From an uncultured delta proteobacterium (GTDB taxonomy: Bacteria > Myxococcota_A > Polyangia > Fen-1088): a DNA stretch of 64,000 nucleotides. The notes beneath the pieces were generated by a model. It worked only from the letters and a program-made list of their open reading frames with translations. It made no database searches and had not been told where the DNA came from. A program made the position numbers and the translations under genes. How positions within the stretch are numbered: the first letter of the stretch is position 1; each line of letters opens with the position of its first letter. Positions 1 through 6,359 of this stretch are shown here, piece by piece. Where the stretch lies: assembly GCA_963767925.1 (NCBI GenBank), contig CAVYGB010000008.1, forward strand, positions 1,824,001-1,888,000. The letters run 5' to 3'.

Positions 1-1331
1 TCATCGACGGCCGGCGAACCGTTGCCGTGGGGCGCCGAACCATTTGCCACGGCTGCGACGGGGGCCGCCGCGGCGACCCGCGGCGCGGCGGCCGGCTCGT
101 CGGCCGGCGCCGGCGCGGCGGCGACCGGACCGGGCGCCTTTGCGGAGGCGACGGCCGGCGTCGAGACCGGAGAGGGCGCCCGGACGGCCACCGCGGCCTG
201 GGCGGCCTGCGCCGTCTGCACCGCCGTGGGCCGGGCCGGAGCGGCAGCGGGCGGGCTGACGGCCGCGGCAGGCGCGGCGGGCGTCACCGGGACACCTCGC
301 GGCGGCGAGCCGGTGCGGGCCGCGATGGCCTTGGCCACCAGGTTCGCCACCTCGGCCTGACCGCCCGCGAACAGCATGGTTCGAGCAAATCCGACGCCGG
401 CGTCCTTGGACGCGGCTGGCTGCGCCCCCGGCGCGGCGACCAGCGCTTCGACCTCCGAGAGGAAGAGACGCAAGGTGAGGTGCCGCCGGCTCGAGCTCTT
501 GTCCAGGGCCTTGAGGACGACCCGGTCGACATCGGGGGTCAGCGCGGCCTCGGGACGGCGCTGGCTGGGCGCGAGCGGCGGGCTGCCAAGATGCAGCTCG
601 AGGACGGTCTCGGGCGTTCCCTGGAAAGGCGGCTCACCGGTGACCAGGTGATAAAAGACCGCAGCCAGGCTGTAAGTGTTGGACCGCTGATCGACCGGCT
701 TGCCCTGGATCTGCTCGGGCGACAGGTAGGCCGCAACCCCGGCTGCGCGCTCGTTGATCGGCTTGGCCAGGGGGAAGTTGATGACCTTGACGTCTCCGCT
801 CGGCCCCACGAGGACATTTTTGGGGGCCACGTCCCGGTGAACGATGCCGGCCTTCTGGGCCTCGAGCAGCGCCTGTCCAATCTGGAGGATGACGCCCTTG
901 GCCCGCTCGAATGGCATCGCGCCGGCGCGGAGCTGGTGCTCGAGGGACTCCCCCTCGCACAGCTCCATCGCGACGAACAGGCGATCGTCGGCCGCCTTGC
1001 CACACTCGACGATGGTTGCGATCTTGGGGCTGGACACCCGCATGAGCTGGCGGTACTCGCGCTCGGCGCGGCCCAGCGCGGCCGGGTTCGGCAGCACGTC
1101 CGAGCTCACGACCTTGTAGGCGACGTCGGCGCCACCCTGGGAGTCGGTGGCGCGGAAGACCTGCCCGGTGCTTTTGCCCCCGAGGCGGGCTCCCGCCTGG
1201 AAACGGGAACGCGTCTCGGCGGCGACCACGGCCTGCAGGCGCTGAGGGCCCGACGGAGTCGCGCAGGTCTCCTGGGGACAGAAATTGGCGTCGTCGGGAT
1301 ACGTGCTCTTGCAGGTTGGGCAGAGTTTCAT
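1..1331 (-). CDS. Zinc-ribbon + Hanks-type Ser/Thr kinase-like protein, probable pseudokinase (3' end runs off window)
   Basis: Not in the ORF track; translated by hand from ATG at 1331: MKLCPTCKSTYPDDANFCPQETC...VAYKVV...VAMELCEGESL...IVHRDVAPKNVLV...VKVINFPLAK...YLSPEQIQG...QRSNTYSLAAVFYHLVTGEPPF, then an Ala/Pro-rich tail. Confidence 0.85.
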   Translation of the reverse strand, partial: MKLCPTCKSTYPDDANFCPQETCATPSGPQRLQAVVAAETRSRFQAGARLGGKSTGQVFRATDSQGGADVAYKVVSSDVLPNPAALGRAEREYRQLMRVSSPKIATIVECGKAADDRLFVAMELCEGESLEHQLRAGAMPFERAKGVILQIGQALLEAQKAGIVHRDVAPKNVLVGPSGDVKVINFPLAKPINERAAGVAAYLSPEQIQGKPVDQRSNTYSLAAVFYHLVTGEPPFQGTPETVLELHLGSPPLAPSQRRPEAALTPDVDRVVLKALDKSSSRRHLTLRLFLSEVEALVAAPGAQPAASKDAGVGFARTMLFAGGQAEVANLVAKAIAARTGSPPRGVPVTPAAPAAAVSPPAAAPARPTAVQTAQAAQAAVAVRAPSPVSTPAVASAKAPGPVAAAPAPADEPAAAPRVAAAAPVAAVANGSAPHGNGSPAVD

Positions 1332-1529
1332 CGGGCTCCCGGTCTATCGAGAACGCTCCCGACCACCCGACCGTCCGGGTCCACGGGGCACTTCGATCTT
1401 AGGCGCGCCATAGACCGAAAGCAACGGCCCGTCCGCGACCGGACAGGGGCGTACCTCCGGCGTCTATCCGGGACCGGCGCGCGGTCGGGGCCGCACGTTC
1501 ACCCTCAAGCACCTACGTGAGCAGGGCAG

Positions 1530-1694
1530 CTACTTGCGGGCGGGCTGCGCAGGCTGCCCTGGCTCGCCCATTCCGGCAAACAGCTCGGCCGCCGAAGGCG
1601 TCGAGTGTCGGCTCTCCTGGTTCTTCCGTTTGCGCCCAGCTTTTGCCTTCCGGGCCAGGCGGCGTTTCCAGGTCTCTCGCGTGTTCGAAGCCAT
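1530..1694 (-). CDS. Small basic protein, 54 aa (uncalled)
   Basis: MASNTRETWKRRLARKAKAGRKRKNQESRHSTPSAAELFAGMGEPGQPAQPARK*; fills the gap between rel and the kinase on the same strand; candidate TTGACC-N18-TAAATG promoter just upstream. Confidence 0.7.
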   Translation of the reverse strand: MASNTRETWKRRLARKAKAGRKRKNQESRHSTPSAAELFAGMGEPGQPAQPARK

Positions 1695-1742
1695 GAGGAA
1701 GCGGTCATTTACCAGGCCCCACCCCGCCGGTCAACCCGGCGC

Positions 1743-3905
1743 TCACATGCGGACGACCGAGAGGACCCCGTCGAGCGCCTGCAGGGAGCGGATCACGGAC
1801 TTGAGCTGGTCGACGTGCCCGACCATCACGTGGAAGGTGTTTATCCCACGTCGGTCCTCGGTCGTCCGACACTTGGCCTGCGAGATGTTCACCCCGTGGT
1901 CAGTGAAGCACTTGGAGATGGAGGCGAGGATGCCTGGCCGGTCGGTGCTGATGATCTCGAGCGCCACCGGCCGGGGGACCTGCGCCCCCTCGTCCCAGGA
2001 GACCTCCACCCGGCGGGCGGGGTCCAGATCCAGCGCCTTCCGGCACTCGCGGGTGTGAACGATGACCCCCCGCCGCACGCTGATGAAGGCCACGATGTCG
2101 TCGCCCGGCACCGGGTTGCAGCACTTGGCGAACTTGACGACGATGTCCGCCTCGCCCTGCACCCGCACGCCCCCCACCAATTTTCTGACCGGGCGCCGGT
2201 GCAGCCCCGTGTTCTCGCTGGGGGTGGCCAGGGGCACCCCGTCGCTGGGGGCCTCCCCGCCACGCTGCGGGTAGATCGCCTCGGCCGCGCTCGCTGGCGT
2301 GATCTTGCCGTAGCCGACCAGCACCAGGAGGTCGTCCGCCGAGCCGGCCCGCAGGCGCTGGGCAGCCGGCTCGAGCAGGCCGTCTTTCTCGGCCTGGGTC
2401 AGGGAACGGCTGCGCTCGCGCATCTCCTTGGCCAGCAGGTCGCGACCGTAGCGCCTGCTGCGGTCACGCTGCTCCATCCGCAGGAAATGGCGGATGCGCG
2501 TCCGGGCCCGGCTGGTGACGACGAACTTGAGCCAGTCCTTGGAAGGCTTCTGGCTCGTCGAGGTCAGGATCTCGATGGTGTCGCCATTGCGCAGGACGTA
2601 ACGGAGGGGGACGATGATGCCGTTGACCCGCGATCCCGAGCAGTGGGCGCCGATCTTGGAGTGAACCGCATAGGCGAAGTCGATCGGCGTGGCCCCCTTG
2701 GGCAGGGACTTGACGTCCCCCTTGGGGGTGAAGACGAAGACCTCCTCCTCGAACAGGTCGATCTTGACGGTCTCGAGGAACTCGGTCGGATCCTTGAGGT
2801 CCCGCTGCCACTCCATGAGCTGGTGGAGCCAGGCGAAGGCCTTGCTGTCGGAGCCGGTGAGGGGGCGGTTCTCCTTGTAGCGCCAGTGGGCCGCGATCCC
2901 GTGTTCGGCGGTGTGGTGCATCTCGGCGGTGCGGATCTGCACCTCCATGCGGTCGGCGTTGGGGCCGATCACGGTGGTGTGCAGGGATTGGTACAGGTTG
3001 GGTTTGGGCAGCGCGATGAAGTCCTTGAAGCGGCCCGGCACCGGCGTCCAGTGAGAGTGAACCACCCCCAGGGCGGCGTAGCAGTCGCGGACCGATCCGA
3101 CGAGCACGCGAAAGGCGATGACGTCGTGGATCTGCTCGAACTCCCGCCCGGTCTTTTTCATCTTCTGCTGGATCGACCAGAGGTGTTTGGCCCGGCCGGT
3201 GACCGTGGCCTCGACCTCCGCGGTCCGCATGGCCTCCCGGAGCTTGTCGCAGGTCTCCCCGATGTACCGCTCGCGCACCGCCTCGGTGTCGCGCATGCGG
3301 ACCACCAGCGCCCGGTAGTCCTCCGGTTCGAGGTACTGGAAGCTGAGATCCTCCAGCTCGGCCTTCATCCACTGGATGCCCAGCCGGTTGGCCATGGGCG
3401 CGTAGATCTCGCGGGTCTCCCGGGCGATCCGCTCCTGCTTGTCCCGGGGCATGTGCTCGAGGGTCCGCATGTTGTCCACGCGGTCGGCCAGCTTGATGAG
3501 GATGACCCGGATGTCCCGGGCCATCGCCAGCAGCATCTTGCGGAAGTTCTCGGCCTGCTTCTCCTCCCGGGTGTGCCAGGCGATCTGGCCGAGCTTGGTG
3601 ACACCGTCGACGAGCATCTGGATCTCGGGACCGAAGAGTCGCCCGATGTCCTCGGCGGTGGCGCTGGTGTCCTCGACGCAGTCGTGCAACAGCCCGGCGC
3701 AGACCGAGGGCACGTCGAGCTTCAGGTCGGCGATCAGCTTGGCCACCCCCAGGGGATGGACCACGTAGGGCTCGCCGGATCGCCGGAGCTGACCAGCGTG
3801 CCGTTCGGCCGCGAACTCGTAGCTACGTCGCACCAGGCCCAGGTCGGCGGTCGGATCATGACCGCGAACCGCATCGAGTACCGGAGCGACGTCAGTAAAT
3901 GCCAC
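1743..3905 (-). CDS. rel: Bifunctional (p)ppGpp synthetase/hydrolase (long RSH)
   Basis: Intact HD motif (LLHDCVEDT), RFKD, YQSLHTT, EVQIRT, TGS (VFTPKG..LPKGATPIDFAY), CCNPVPGD, C-terminal ACT. Confidence 0.97.
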   Translation of the reverse strand: MAFTDVAPVLDAVRGHDPTADLGLVRRSYEFAAERHAGQLRRSGEPYVVHPLGVAKLIADLKLDVPSVCAGLLHDCVEDTSATAEDIGRLFGPEIQMLVDGVTKLGQIAWHTREEKQAENFRKMLLAMARDIRVILIKLADRVDNMRTLEHMPRDKQERIARETREIYAPMANRLGIQWMKAELEDLSFQYLEPEDYRALVVRMRDTEAVRERYIGETCDKLREAMRTAEVEATVTGRAKHLWSIQQKMKKTGREFEQIHDVIAFRVLVGSVRDCYAALGVVHSHWTPVPGRFKDFIALPKPNLYQSLHTTVIGPNADRMEVQIRTAEMHHTAEHGIAAHWRYKENRPLTGSDSKAFAWLHQLMEWQRDLKDPTEFLETVKIDLFEEEVFVFTPKGDVKSLPKGATPIDFAYAVHSKIGAHCSGSRVNGIIVPLRYVLRNGDTIEILTSTSQKPSKDWLKFVVTSRARTRIRHFLRMEQRDRSRRYGRDLLAKEMRERSRSLTQAEKDGLLEPAAQRLRAGSADDLLVLVGYGKITPASAAEAIYPQRGGEAPSDGVPLATPSENTGLHRRPVRKLVGGVRVQGEADIVVKFAKCCNPVPGDDIVAFISVRRGVIVHTRECRKALDLDPARRVEVSWDEGAQVPRPVALEIISTDRPGILASISKCFTDHGVNISQAKCRTTEDRRGINTFHVMVGHVDQLKSVIRSLQALDGVLSVVRM

Positions 3906-3922
3906 TCCCGCTACACTCTACC

Positions 3923-4558
3923 TCAGCCGACGCGGGCCGCCACCTCGGCCAGCAGAACGCGGGCGTGGGCGGCGGCGCGGGGGCGGGTGCAGCGGGCGGC
4001 GATGTAGATCGAGCTCAGCTCGGAGAAGGCGGTCTCCAGGTCATCGTTGACCACCAGGTAGTCGTATTCGTCGTAGTGCCGCAGCTCCTCCTGGGCGGTA
4101 CGCAGGCGGCGTTCGATGACCTCGACGGAGTCGGTGGCTCGCTGGCGCAGGCGGCGCTCCAGCTCAAACAGCGAGGGGGGCAAGATGAAGACCAGCACGC
4201 TGTCCTGGGGCCACTGCCGGCGGATCTGGCGCCCCCCCTGGAAGTCGATGTCGAACAGGCAATCGACCCCCTGCTCGATGGCCCGGTTGACCGTGGCGAT
4301 GGAGGTGCCGTAGCGGTTCCCGTGCACCAGGGCGTGCTCGGCGAAGTCCCCGGCGGCGACCATGCGGTCGAACACCTCGTTGTCCACGAAGTGGTAGTCC
4401 GCGCCCTCCACCTCCCCGGGGCGGGGCCGGCGGGTCGTGTAGGAGACCGAAAAGCAGAGGTCGTGGGTGGCGGCCAGCCGGCGCGTGAGGGTGGTCTTCC
4501 CCGCGCCCGAAGGGGACGAGATGACCGTCAGGATTCCGCGCCTCGCGATGCTCATCAC
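3923..4558 (-). CDS. gmk: Guanylate kinase
   Basis: SPSGAGKTT P-loop, SYTTRRPRPGEVEGADYHF, YGTS, YDYLVVNDDLE. Confidence 0.97.
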   Translation of the reverse strand: MMSIARRGILTVISSPSGAGKTTLTRRLAATHDLCFSVSYTTRRPRPGEVEGADYHFVDNEVFDRMVAAGDFAEHALVHGNRYGTSIATVNRAIEQGVDCLFDIDFQGGRQIRRQWPQDSVLVFILPPSLFELERRLRQRATDSVEVIERRLRTAQEELRHYDEYDYLVVNDDLETAFSELSSIYIAARCTRPRAAAHARVLLAEVAARVG

Positions 4559-5421
4559 TCGATATTCTGCGCTTGCTCCCGGATCTTCTCCAACTCGGCC
4601 TTACCCTCGATCACCAGCGCCGACACCTCCACATCCTGCGCCTTGACCCCCAGGGTATTGAGCTCGCGCGCCAGCTCCTGTATCAGAAACTCGAGGGTTC
4701 GCCCAATGCTTTCCGTGGCCACAGCTCCGCTCAGCAGCGGGCCCAGGCGCGCGCGGTGACCGTCGAGCCGAGCCAGCTCCTCGCTGACGTCGAGGCGATC
4801 GGCCAGGAGCGCCACCTCCTGAGCCAGCCGCGCGGGGTCCACCACGCCGGCGCCGAGCGTCCGCATACGCTCTCGCAGGCGGGCCTCCGCCCGCTGGGCG
4901 AGGGGGGCCGCGTGGCGGTGCAGGTCGGCGACCACCCGGGCCAGCCGCTCGGCCCGGGTGCTCATGTCCTGGCCAACCGCCTCGCCCTCCCGCTCCCGCA
5001 TGGCCTGTAGCGCGACCAGCGCCTCCTGCACGGCGGGCCCTATCTCCTCCCAGGTCAGGGCGGTCGCCACCGGCTCCCGCTCCAGCCGCAGGAAGGCCGC
5101 CACCGTGCCCAGGTCGACCGGATCGGCCAGCCCCAGGCCGGTCCGGATCCCCTCGAGGCTGCGGTGCACCTCCCGGATGCGCTCCGGCGAGACCTGCGGG
5201 ATTCGCTCGGCGTTCTCCTCCTCGACCGACACCTGCACCGCCCCCCGGCGCAGCGCCGTGCGCACCGCCCGGATGATCTCTATCTCGCAGGCGGCGGCCA
5301 GGGCCCGACTGCGCAGCTTGACGTCGAGGGCCCGGTGGTTGACCGAGCGGATCTCCACCACCAGCCGCCGGCCGCCGCCCGAGAGGCAGGCCGCCCGTCC
5401 GAATCCGGTCATGCTCAACAT
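4555..5421 (-). CDS. yicC: YicC/YloC family endoribonuclease
   Basis: MLSMTGFG, EIRSVNHR, DVSEELARL, RELNTLGVK, EKIREQAQNIE; start moved to ATG 5421. Confidence 0.93.
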   Translation of the reverse strand: MLSMTGFGRAACLSGGGRRLVVEIRSVNHRALDVKLRSRALAAACEIEIIRAVRTALRRGAVQVSVEEENAERIPQVSPERIREVHRSLEGIRTGLGLADPVDLGTVAAFLRLEREPVATALTWEEIGPAVQEALVALQAMREREGEAVGQDMSTRAERLARVVADLHRHAAPLAQRAEARLRERMRTLGAGVVDPARLAQEVALLADRLDVSEELARLDGHRARLGPLLSGAVATESIGRTLEFLIQELARELNTLGVKAQDVEVSALVIEGKAELEKIREQAQNIE

Positions 5422-6359
5422 GCGGGCGCGGCCCGGAACCACTCGACGGTGCGTCGCAGGCCCTCGGCGAACATCACCTGCGGCCGATAGCCCAGGTGGG
5501 TGCCGGCCAGCCCGATGTCGGCCAGCGAGTGCTTGACGTCGCCCGACCGTCCCGCCTCGTAACGCGCCGTCACCTTCCGGCCGAACATCTCCGCGAGCAG
5601 GTCGAGGACGGCGTTGAGCTCGGTGGCCTCGCCACAGGCGATGTTGAAGACCCGCCCCACGGCGCCCGGTGCGCTCGCCGCGAGCAGGTTGGCCTCGACG
5701 ACGTTGTCGATGAAGCAGAAGTCACGGGACTGCTTGCCGTCGCCGAAGACGATCGGCTCGCGCTGGGCCATCGCCGCCGTGACGAAGCGGGGGATCACCG
5801 CCGCGTACTGAGACGCGGGATCCTGGCGCGGTCCGAACACGTTGAAGTAGCGGAGCACGACCGTCTCGAGCCCCATCGTTCGCGCGTACATCTGGCAATA
5901 GAGCTCGCCGGTCAGCTTGGACACAGCGTAGGGGGAGAGGGGGGAGGTCGGCATCGTCTCGACCTTGGGCAGGACGGCCGTGTCGCCGTAGGCCGAGGAC
6001 GAGCCGGCGTAGACCACCCGCCGCACCCGGTTGGCCCGGGCGGCCTCGAGCACCCGCAAGGTGCCGGTGGCGTTGGCGTCGTGGCTCGGCAAAGGGGCGG
6101 CCACGGAGCGGGGCACCGACGGGATCGCCGCCTGGTGAAAGATCACCTCGACGCCTTCGGCGGCGCGGGCCAGGGTCGGGCCGTCCAGGATGTCGCCCTC
6201 GATCCACTCGATCGACCCCGTGAGATCGGCCAGATTCTCCCGTCTCCCGGAGGAGAGGTTGTCGAGCACGCGCACCGATTGACCGCGCGCGAGCAGCGCC
6301 CGCGCCAGCGACGATCCGATGAATCCGGCTCCTCCGGTGACCAGCGTTTTGGGGCGCAT
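5415..6359 (-). CDS. NAD-dependent epimerase/dehydratase (extended SDR, UDP-sugar 4-epimerase-like)
   Basis: GGAGFIG, YAVSK (YxxxK), LRYFNVFGPRQDP, GDGKQSRDF. Confidence 0.92.
   Translation of the reverse strand: MRPKTLVTGGAGFIGSSLARALLARGQSVRVLDNLSSGRRENLADLTGSIEWIEGDILDGPTLARAAEGVEVIFHQAAIPSVPRSVAAPLPSHDANATGTLRVLEAARANRVRRVVYAGSSSAYGDTAVLPKVETMPTSPLSPYAVSKLTGELYCQMYARTMGLETVVLRYFNVFGPRQDPASQYAAVIPRFVTAAMAQREPIVFGDGKQSRDFCFIDNVVEANLLAASAPGAVGRVFNIACGEATELNAVLDLLAEMFGRKVTARYEAGRSGDVKHSLADIGLAGTHLGYRPQVMFAEGLRRTVEWFRAAPAC

Follow-up and report, generated by a model that had tools for sequence, protein, structure and literature searches.

A small basic gene behind rel

We analyzed a 64,000-nucleotide stretch of DNA from a member of the Myxococcota (hereafter the window), which has a G+C content of 70.3%. 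Near its start, a series of genes and regulatory elements lies on the minus strand, listed here by window position:

1-1331, minus strand: 5′ part of a zinc-ribbon Ser/Thr protein kinase-like gene that runs past the window start; the conserved downstream neighbor
1396-1424, minus strand: candidate kinase promoter, TTGCTT-N17-TAAGAT, 64 nt before the kinase ATG; a like pattern occurs in relatives
1428-1447, minus strand: weak hairpin of terminator type that follows the small gene and borders on the kinase −35 element (3 sites versus 0.4 expected)
1530-1694, minus strand: small ORF, 54 aa plus TAG
1706-1714, minus strand: putative extended −10 element, with TG at 1713-1714 and the hexamer TAAATG at 1706-1711, 11 nt from the ATG
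1729-1734, minus strand: −35 element TTGACC of the small gene's own predicted promoter, 8 nt after the rel stop
1743-3905, minus strand: rel, a long RSH gene (HD_4, RelA_SpoT, TGS, AH/RIS and ACT by Pfam), the upstream neighbor on the same strand
3923-4558, minus strand: gmk, within the conserved order yicC-gmk-rel-small-kinase

The small ORF had been singled out in an earlier note, made from the sequence alone, as a clean ATG-to-TAG frame of 54 amino acids with a basic stretch followed by STPS..ELF. This frame of 54 codons is indeed present, read from 1694 down to 1530, and both segments fall within it. Its product is a 6.0-kDa protein with a pI of 11.8. It contains 14 Lys or Arg residues against 4 Asp or Glu, and 12 of the 14 basic residues lie within the first 30 positions. 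The protein opens with MASNT, continues through a basic helix-Gly-helix segment (residues ~4-29), STPS and ELF, and closes with a G-PG-P tail. The gene is single-copy in its genome, where the next best match has an E value of 0.28. The exact protein was absent from a collection of 15 billion proteins, as would be expected had gene calling overlooked it in this genome.

The reading frame is conserved as a protein

At such a G+C content, a 54-codon ORF is not by itself beyond chance, and it is conservation that settles whether the gene is real: in its six frames, the window has 192 ORFs that start with ATG and reach 54 aa or more. We examined 72 loci and found the gene in 71 of them, giving 58 distinct ORF sequences; one locus, labelled Alphaproteobacteria (L072), had no tblastn hit for the small gene. 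The frame was intact in all 58 distinct loci, which are related and not independent of each other, with lengths of 47-81 aa, an ATG start in 57 and a GTG start in 1, and length differences confined to the tail. Variation was concentrated at third codon positions (column entropy of 0.62, 0.58 and 1.30 bits at positions 1, 2 and 3 over the first 46 codons of the 58 distinct loci). For example, the Ala codon following the ATG appears as GCT, GCA, GCG or GCC while the N-terminal residues stay unchanged. Over the same first 46 codons, the median dN/dS was 0.27 (1548 of 1653 pairs computable), and it was 0.39 in the 659 pairs with dS between 0.1 and 1. Conservation and a dN/dS below 1, which the earlier note had put forward as the signs to look for, are thus both borne out.

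Because the frames are intact, vary at third positions and have a dN/dS of 0.27, positions 1530-1694 of the minus strand are almost certainly a genuine protein-coding gene. It is very improbable that the frame is instead a chance ORF in G+C-rich DNA, as the 192 ORFs of equal or larger size might suggest, or that its conservation stems from an RNA or promoter element; as far as computation goes, this is refuted by the comparative data above, by amino-acid motifs kept across subfamilies at 25-45% identity, and by the lack of any matching family in Rfam. The fold of the intergenic RNA after the small gene was ordinary (z −1.08).

A promoter in the gap behind rel

The rel gene ends at 1743, leaving a gap of 48 nt before the ATG of the small gene. 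This gap consists of 8 nt, the hexamer TTGACC, a 17-nt spacer ending in TGG, the hexamer TAAATG, 11 nt devoid of a Shine-Dalgarno-like motif, and then the ATG. The pattern TTGACn-N17/18-TAnnnn was present upstream of the small gene in 55 of 58 distinct loci (shuffled sequences, n = 200: mean 0.2, maximum 3), with a spacer of 17 nt in 52 of the 55 and 18 nt in 3. A general promoter scan, which requires a T at the last −10 position, missed this promoter. In one sub-lineage (L020), the gap between rel and the small gene is 19 nt and the promoter motif was not found. Judged by these patterns, the small gene is its own transcription unit, with a near-consensus sigma-70-type promoter filling the gap behind rel, and this promoter looks constitutive and strong.

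The loci with this promoter fall into two architectures:

Near-leaderless, 41 loci: −10 element to ATG 8-11 nt; TG-extended −10 in 39 of 41; Shine-Dalgarno-like motif absent in 39 of 41
Leadered, 14 loci: −10 element to ATG 21-36 nt; TG-extended −10 in 0 of 14; Shine-Dalgarno-like motif in 14 of 14; −35 element TTGACA in 12 of 14

The window belongs to the first. The spacing between a −10 element and the transcription start is well established, and with 8-11 nt from the −10 element to the ATG it would leave the near-leaderless class with a 5′ UTR of roughly 2-5 nt. In the window, the RNA would start a few nucleotides before the ATG and the small gene would be translated as a leaderless message. 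The earlier note had seen no Shine-Dalgarno site and a candidate −10 element 11 nt before the ATG, and had suggested a nearly leaderless transcript. Both observations hold in the window, and the same geometry, from which the start is deduced, is kept in 41 of the 58 distinct loci.

A narrow family in the Myxococcota

By sequence comparison, the small protein belongs to a family of strongly basic Myxococcota proteins of 47-81 aa, of which it is the first to be described. A single-sequence search returned 415 proteins (E ≤ 1). The best 120 of these 415 were 50-84 aa long, none had a Pfam domain, and they were named "hypothetical protein" or nothing at all, save for two called "transposase-like protein." When 1.84 billion cluster representatives were searched with a profile, only 75 matched at E ≤ 1 × 10−3, 30 at E ≤ 1 × 10−10 and none at E ≤ 1 × 10−30, so the family is narrow. 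Literature term searches found no paper on it.

We then considered how the family is distributed. Among the genomes of 40 relatives, 23 of the 24 from the same family matched at E ≤ 2 × 10−11, the 24th (70% complete) matched at an E value of 0.009, and 9 of the 16 other genomes of the class matched at E ≤ 2 × 10−6. All 52 loci from the species collection came from metagenome-assembled genomes; they were labelled Myxococcota, Myxococcales, Polyangia, Polyangium, Polyangiaceae or, in older terms, Delta- or Proteobacteria, with one labelled Alphaproteobacteria. Genome counts with a joint profile (A4, E ≤ 1 × 10−4), which describe samples in which related genomes are not independent, were as follows:

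Phylum sample, including the window's own genome: 155 of 401 genomes with a match
Same class (Polyangia, going by record titles of related metagenome-assembled genomes): 74 of 78 sampled genomes with a match
Rest of the phylum: 80 of 322 sampled genomes with a match

Nearly all matching genomes had one match, and three had two. Among the genomes searched, matches were absent from three families (f29, 0/34; f36, 0/11; f39, 0/8) and present in only 2 of 29 genomes of a fourth (f32). To judge by these profile matches, the small protein may either be dispensable in these four families or have diverged there beyond the reach of the profile. A one-contig genome of only 1.8 Mb from the same class (G133) keeps a family member. 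In that genome, the gene lies between a Sua5/TsaC gene and pheS, near a gene with an S1 domain (L124, G133:C1:1487155-1493310).

Within the subfamily closest to the window protein, which carries the ELF-type C-terminus, the invariant positions are M1, A2, S3, N4, T8, W9, R12, G20, R23, K24, R29, S31, T32, F39, G43, P45 and G46; N25 is also counted among the invariant polar residues (S3, N4, T8, N25, S31, T32). Whole-genome searches revealed sister subfamilies in other Myxococcota, which share the first ~33 residues of the family and end differently, in G-(S/T)-T-P-x-F-P-I-H-T-P-E-A-D-A-N-A-P, in ..G-T-P-x-F-P-I-H-P-E-G-Y-D.., or in shorter forms. These are annotated as hypothetical proteins only (144 proteins at E ≤ 0.01). 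Several members (for example L042, L056, L066, L071 and P0122) carry Lys/Ala/Pro-rich C-terminal extensions of variable length; most members, the window's included, do not. The earlier note had supposed a real, lineage-restricted and very basic small protein, and its conservation within the Myxococcota and pI of 11.8 agree with that description.

Predicted structure and similarity searches

We modeled the window protein with AlphaFold2 from a wide alignment (mean pLDDT 82.3, pTM 0.40) and obtained helices at residues 4-18, 21-29 and 35-38. The model of a sister-subfamily protein shows the same arrangement, its helices spanning residues 6-18, 21-30 and 41-45 (pLDDT 82.8). The helix break falls at the nearly invariant Gly20. 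The predicted architecture is thus a basic helix-Gly-helix hairpin, then a turn with invariant (S/T)-T-P, then a non-basic motif that is also conserved. This C-terminal motif reads ELF..G.PG.P in the window protein and FPIH.. in sister subfamilies, and it resembles a site for docking on proteins more than one for contacting RNA.

Similarity searches gave little. The window protein matched no Pfam family at E ≤ 1 and no NCBIfam family at E ≤ 10, and four sister-subfamily proteins were likewise without a Pfam or NCBIfam family, save two unrelated Pfam rows at E values of ~0.09-0.10. The PHROG and PADLOC libraries also held no match to the small protein. Profile searches of all PDB chains with profiles A1 and A4 returned no matches at E ≤ 10. 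On these searches, the small protein has no relative among the ribosomal proteins of solved ribosomes, which still leaves room for a new ribosomal protein. Structural comparisons of a 54-residue helical model cannot discriminate; with this model, Foldseek returned no matches in the PDB at E ≤ 10 and VIA-align, run wide, found only generic helices (best Z 3.1).

Several specific identities were considered and rejected. The known small ribosomal proteins bS22, bL37, bTHX, Sra, bS21 and bL34-36 gave no match by their Pfam and NCBIfam profiles. For bL32, there was no match to PF01783, and hhalign assigned a probability of 0.08% against the genome's own bL32, a canonical copy of which lies elsewhere in the genome (G000:C8:3003504-3003671, 70.3 bits). 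The ESM Atlas nevertheless auto-names the nearest clusters, which are unannotated and have no Pfam domain, "L32 family." A substitute for a missing bS21 was also rejected, as bS21 is present in the genome. Finally, RNA polymerase omega is expected after gmk in many bacteria, and the gmk-rel order raised the idea that the small protein might be a displaced omega subunit. It has no match to PF01192, and two PF01192 matches occur elsewhere in the genome. These two matches, both above the cut-off, are ~600 kb away on the same contig (G000:C8:2458400-2458555 and 2480133-2480282), and in the yicC-gmk-rel stretch of the window (1743-5442, minus strand), gmk is followed by rel with no omega-subunit gene in the interval.

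Genomic neighborhood

To describe the genomic context, we counted neighbors in flanks of 1.5-4 kb at 70 distinct ELF-type loci. The kinase gene adjoins the small gene in 68 of the 70, typically at ~100-300 bp, and 61 have rel inside the flank. At 11 loci, 1.2-2.2 kb lie between rel and the small gene while the kinase remains ~100-300 bp off. At 5, the small gene keeps its place between rel and kinase but is inverted. Given its own promoter, the inversions in place and the insertions between rel and the small gene, the small gene appears to be independent of rel; on this comparative evidence it is an independent unit in an old inherited gene order, not part of a rel operon. The earlier note had found the position next to Rel suggestive. 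That argument is weak: the gene has its own promoter, is inverted in 5 of 70 loci and is tied more tightly to the kinase, and its sister subfamilies are nowhere near rel (0/16 loci).

The kinase-like protein, read from its full gene (L108:5148-7331, minus strand), has 728 aa. A zinc ribbon at the N-terminus precedes the kinase domain, which is followed by a long low-complexity linker and one membrane helix near the C-terminus. In the window's clade, this neighbor keeps HRD while DFG reads NFP (N-F-A in some), and in the clade with Shine-Dalgarno-led small genes it mostly reads DFG (EFG or DFA in a few). The window's kinase-like neighbor may, by these motifs, be a pseudokinase. Of 58 loci, 40 have a pattern like the kinase promoter in the 120 nt that follow the small ORF, compared with 1.9 in shuffles.

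An orthologue profile of the kinase proved uninformative as a functional clue, with dozens of equally good matches per genome: three genomes (G311, G202, G276) held 69-106 matches each at E ≤ 1 × 10−40, so adjacency to such a kinase means little. Many of these matches align from the first zinc-ribbon residues, which indicates that the architecture is that of a large paralogous family.

Within 1.5 kb of sister-subfamily genes, neither rel nor the zinc-ribbon kinase was present at any of 16 loci. Their neighbors include an S49 peptidase, TatD, DNA polymerase III delta′, a thiolase and a lipoprotein-like gene placed head-to-head. This last arrangement belongs to the FPIHT-type sister subfamily, where a gene for an acidic lipoprotein-like protein of ~250-320 aa, with no Pfam family, lies ~60-250 nt from the start of the small gene on the opposite strand in 7 of 9 loci (L092, L093, L096, L099, L100, L101, L104), within two wider contexts. 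Elsewhere, subfamilies adjoin truA with a class IV aminotransferase and an MA peptidase, RF3, Sua5/pheS, or an ECF sigma factor with a kinase. Translation-linked neighbors (rel, RF3, pheS/Sua5/S1, truA) occur in 4 of 6 distinct contexts, a count that is not statistically meaningful. The neighbors of sister subfamilies are heterogeneous and gave no consistent functional signal.

We also searched for longer proteins containing the small protein. This returned three, which, like P0136, P0177 and P0182, join the C-terminus of Rel to the small protein. Among public metagenome gene calls, P0136, P0177, P0182, P0318 and P0319 show the Rel C-terminal domain joined to the small protein. As evidence of a functional link, these fusions were rejected; the frame changes at different points, and we judged them to be indel artefacts. 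A long upstream open frame in one genome (G009) is a shadow frame.

Possible functions

The small protein could well be a specific nucleic-acid-binding housekeeping protein, a reading to which we give considerable but less than even weight. We suggest that an abundant housekeeping protein would clamp a specific nucleic-acid site with its basic hairpin, and that the C-terminal motif would make a second contact. The invariant polar residues S3, N4, T8, N25, S31 and T32 would fit a specific contact rather than a merely electrostatic one, and the pI of 11.8, the 12 basic residues among the first 30 and the Lys/Ala/Pro tails of some members also suit nucleic-acid binding. The nucleic acid bound would most probably be rRNA, making the protein a lineage-specific ribosomal protein or ribosome-bound factor, with the rel neighborhood reflecting inherited gene order and not an operon.

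Association with the ribosome is plausible, at somewhat lower odds than nucleic-acid binding in general. Among the readings weighed, a ribosome-bound role is the single most likely, even if it is far from assured in itself; it draws on the invariant polar residues, the retention in a reduced genome, the promoter, and the precedent of bS22 and bL37. These small basic ribosomal proteins were reportedly found only by cryo-EM (10.1101/2023.03.31.535098; PMC10085706). The fuller version of this proposal is somewhat more doubtful: the protein would be an unrecognised Myxococcota ribosomal protein or a constitutively ribosome-bound factor, with its hairpin in rRNA and its C-terminal motif exposed for docking, and the rel neighborhood may then reflect a shared site on the ribosome. 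Several findings count against the ribosomal reading. The genome already has bL32, bS21 and omega, and nothing obvious is missing for the small protein to replace. There is no similarity to ribosomal protein families or solved chains, and the folds matched are generic helices with Z scores of ~3. In addition, much of the phylum gave no match to the family, its genomic contexts are heterogeneous, and its C-terminal motif is of a kind more suited to a protein partner than to RNA.

Comparison with known systems gives partial likenesses. The ribosomal proteins bS22, bL37 and bTHX are small, very basic and lineage-restricted. They and the small protein alike have tens of residues, an extremely basic composition, a distribution limited to one lineage and little hydrophobic core (predicted for the small protein), and are easily missed by gene callers. 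The small protein differs in having no sequence similarity to any of them and in its conserved non-basic C-terminal motif. Its N-terminus, of the type M-A-x-x-x-R-x-T-x-K-x-R, resembles that of bL32, but the zinc-ribbon part of bL32 and a match to PF01783 are both lacking. Hibernation or silencing peptides of the RMF type are also ~55 aa, basic and helical. RMF is linked to ppGpp, and in the window's lineage the small gene lies next to a stringent-response gene; the small protein nonetheless has no sequence similarity to RMF, has a strong promoter that looks constitutive, and has sister subfamilies unlinked to rel.

A nucleoid-associated DNA-binding protein is an unlikely alternative in which the hairpin, together with the H1-like Lys/Ala/Pro tails of some members, would coat or bend DNA, and the promoter would provide a high copy number. 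Histone-H1-like and AlgP-like basic proteins share with the family a high positive charge and, in some members, Lys/Ala/Pro-rich extensions. The net charge and pI of 11.8 suit such a role, one gene context adjoins holB/tatD, and retention in a reduced genome is compatible with it, though this would fit any core function. Against this, the tails are optional and missing from most members, including the window's, and the conserved core is a short hairpin of helices that carries invariant polar residues. An invariant polar N-terminus and a conserved C-terminal motif would be unusual for non-specific coating of DNA, and no known nucleoid protein family was matched.

It is improbable that the small protein is a partner or substrate of the zinc-ribbon Ser/Thr kinase or kinase-like neighbor, with S-T-P as phospho-acceptor or ELF as a docking site. 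The kinase is the steadier neighbor (68/70 loci against 61/70 for rel, at ~100-300 bp), S31 and T32 are invariant in the ELF subfamily, and the ELF-type C-terminus occurs where the kinase is adjacent. Yet the small gene and the kinase have separate promoters, the small gene is inverted in 5 loci, and the T-P is equally conserved where no kinase is nearby (0/16 loci) and in the 1.8-Mb genome. The 69-106 matches per genome to the same kinase profile also weigh against a dedicated pair, and with NFP in place of DFG the motif has lost its aspartate in the window's clade, so that this kinase-like protein may phosphorylate nothing.

Less probable still is a modulator of Rel and the stringent response, binding Rel itself or the ribosome together with Rel. 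The small gene follows rel on one strand across a 48-nt gap that holds no terminator, so that transcripts reading through from rel would include it; rel is in the flank of 61 of 70 loci, and in the L020 sub-lineage the 19-nt gap has no recognizable promoter motif. Set against these points are the gene's own promoter in 55 of 58 loci, the insertions of 1.2-2.2 kb between rel and the small gene in 11 loci, the inverted orientation in five, and sister subfamilies unlinked to rel. The public gene calls that fuse Rel to the small protein, being frame-changing artefacts, lend this reading no help. Of the functions considered here, a ribosome-bound role remains the one we favor.

Implications for the Myxococcota

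This is an undescribed family of a familiar kind, the small, basic, lineage-specific protein. Genome annotation misses exactly such proteins, and the window's copy is itself absent from the 15-billion-protein collection. The family is a cleanly defined, near-universal marker of the class Polyangia and a short, well-conserved target for biochemical work. Its leaderless and Shine-Dalgarno-led versions of one gene form a natural pair for the study of translation initiation. The Myxococcota are known for their large genomes, their complex development and their natural products, and literature term searches turned up no structure of a ribosome from this phylum. If the small protein is ribosome-bound, it would be a lineage-specific addition to the translation machinery of these bacteria.
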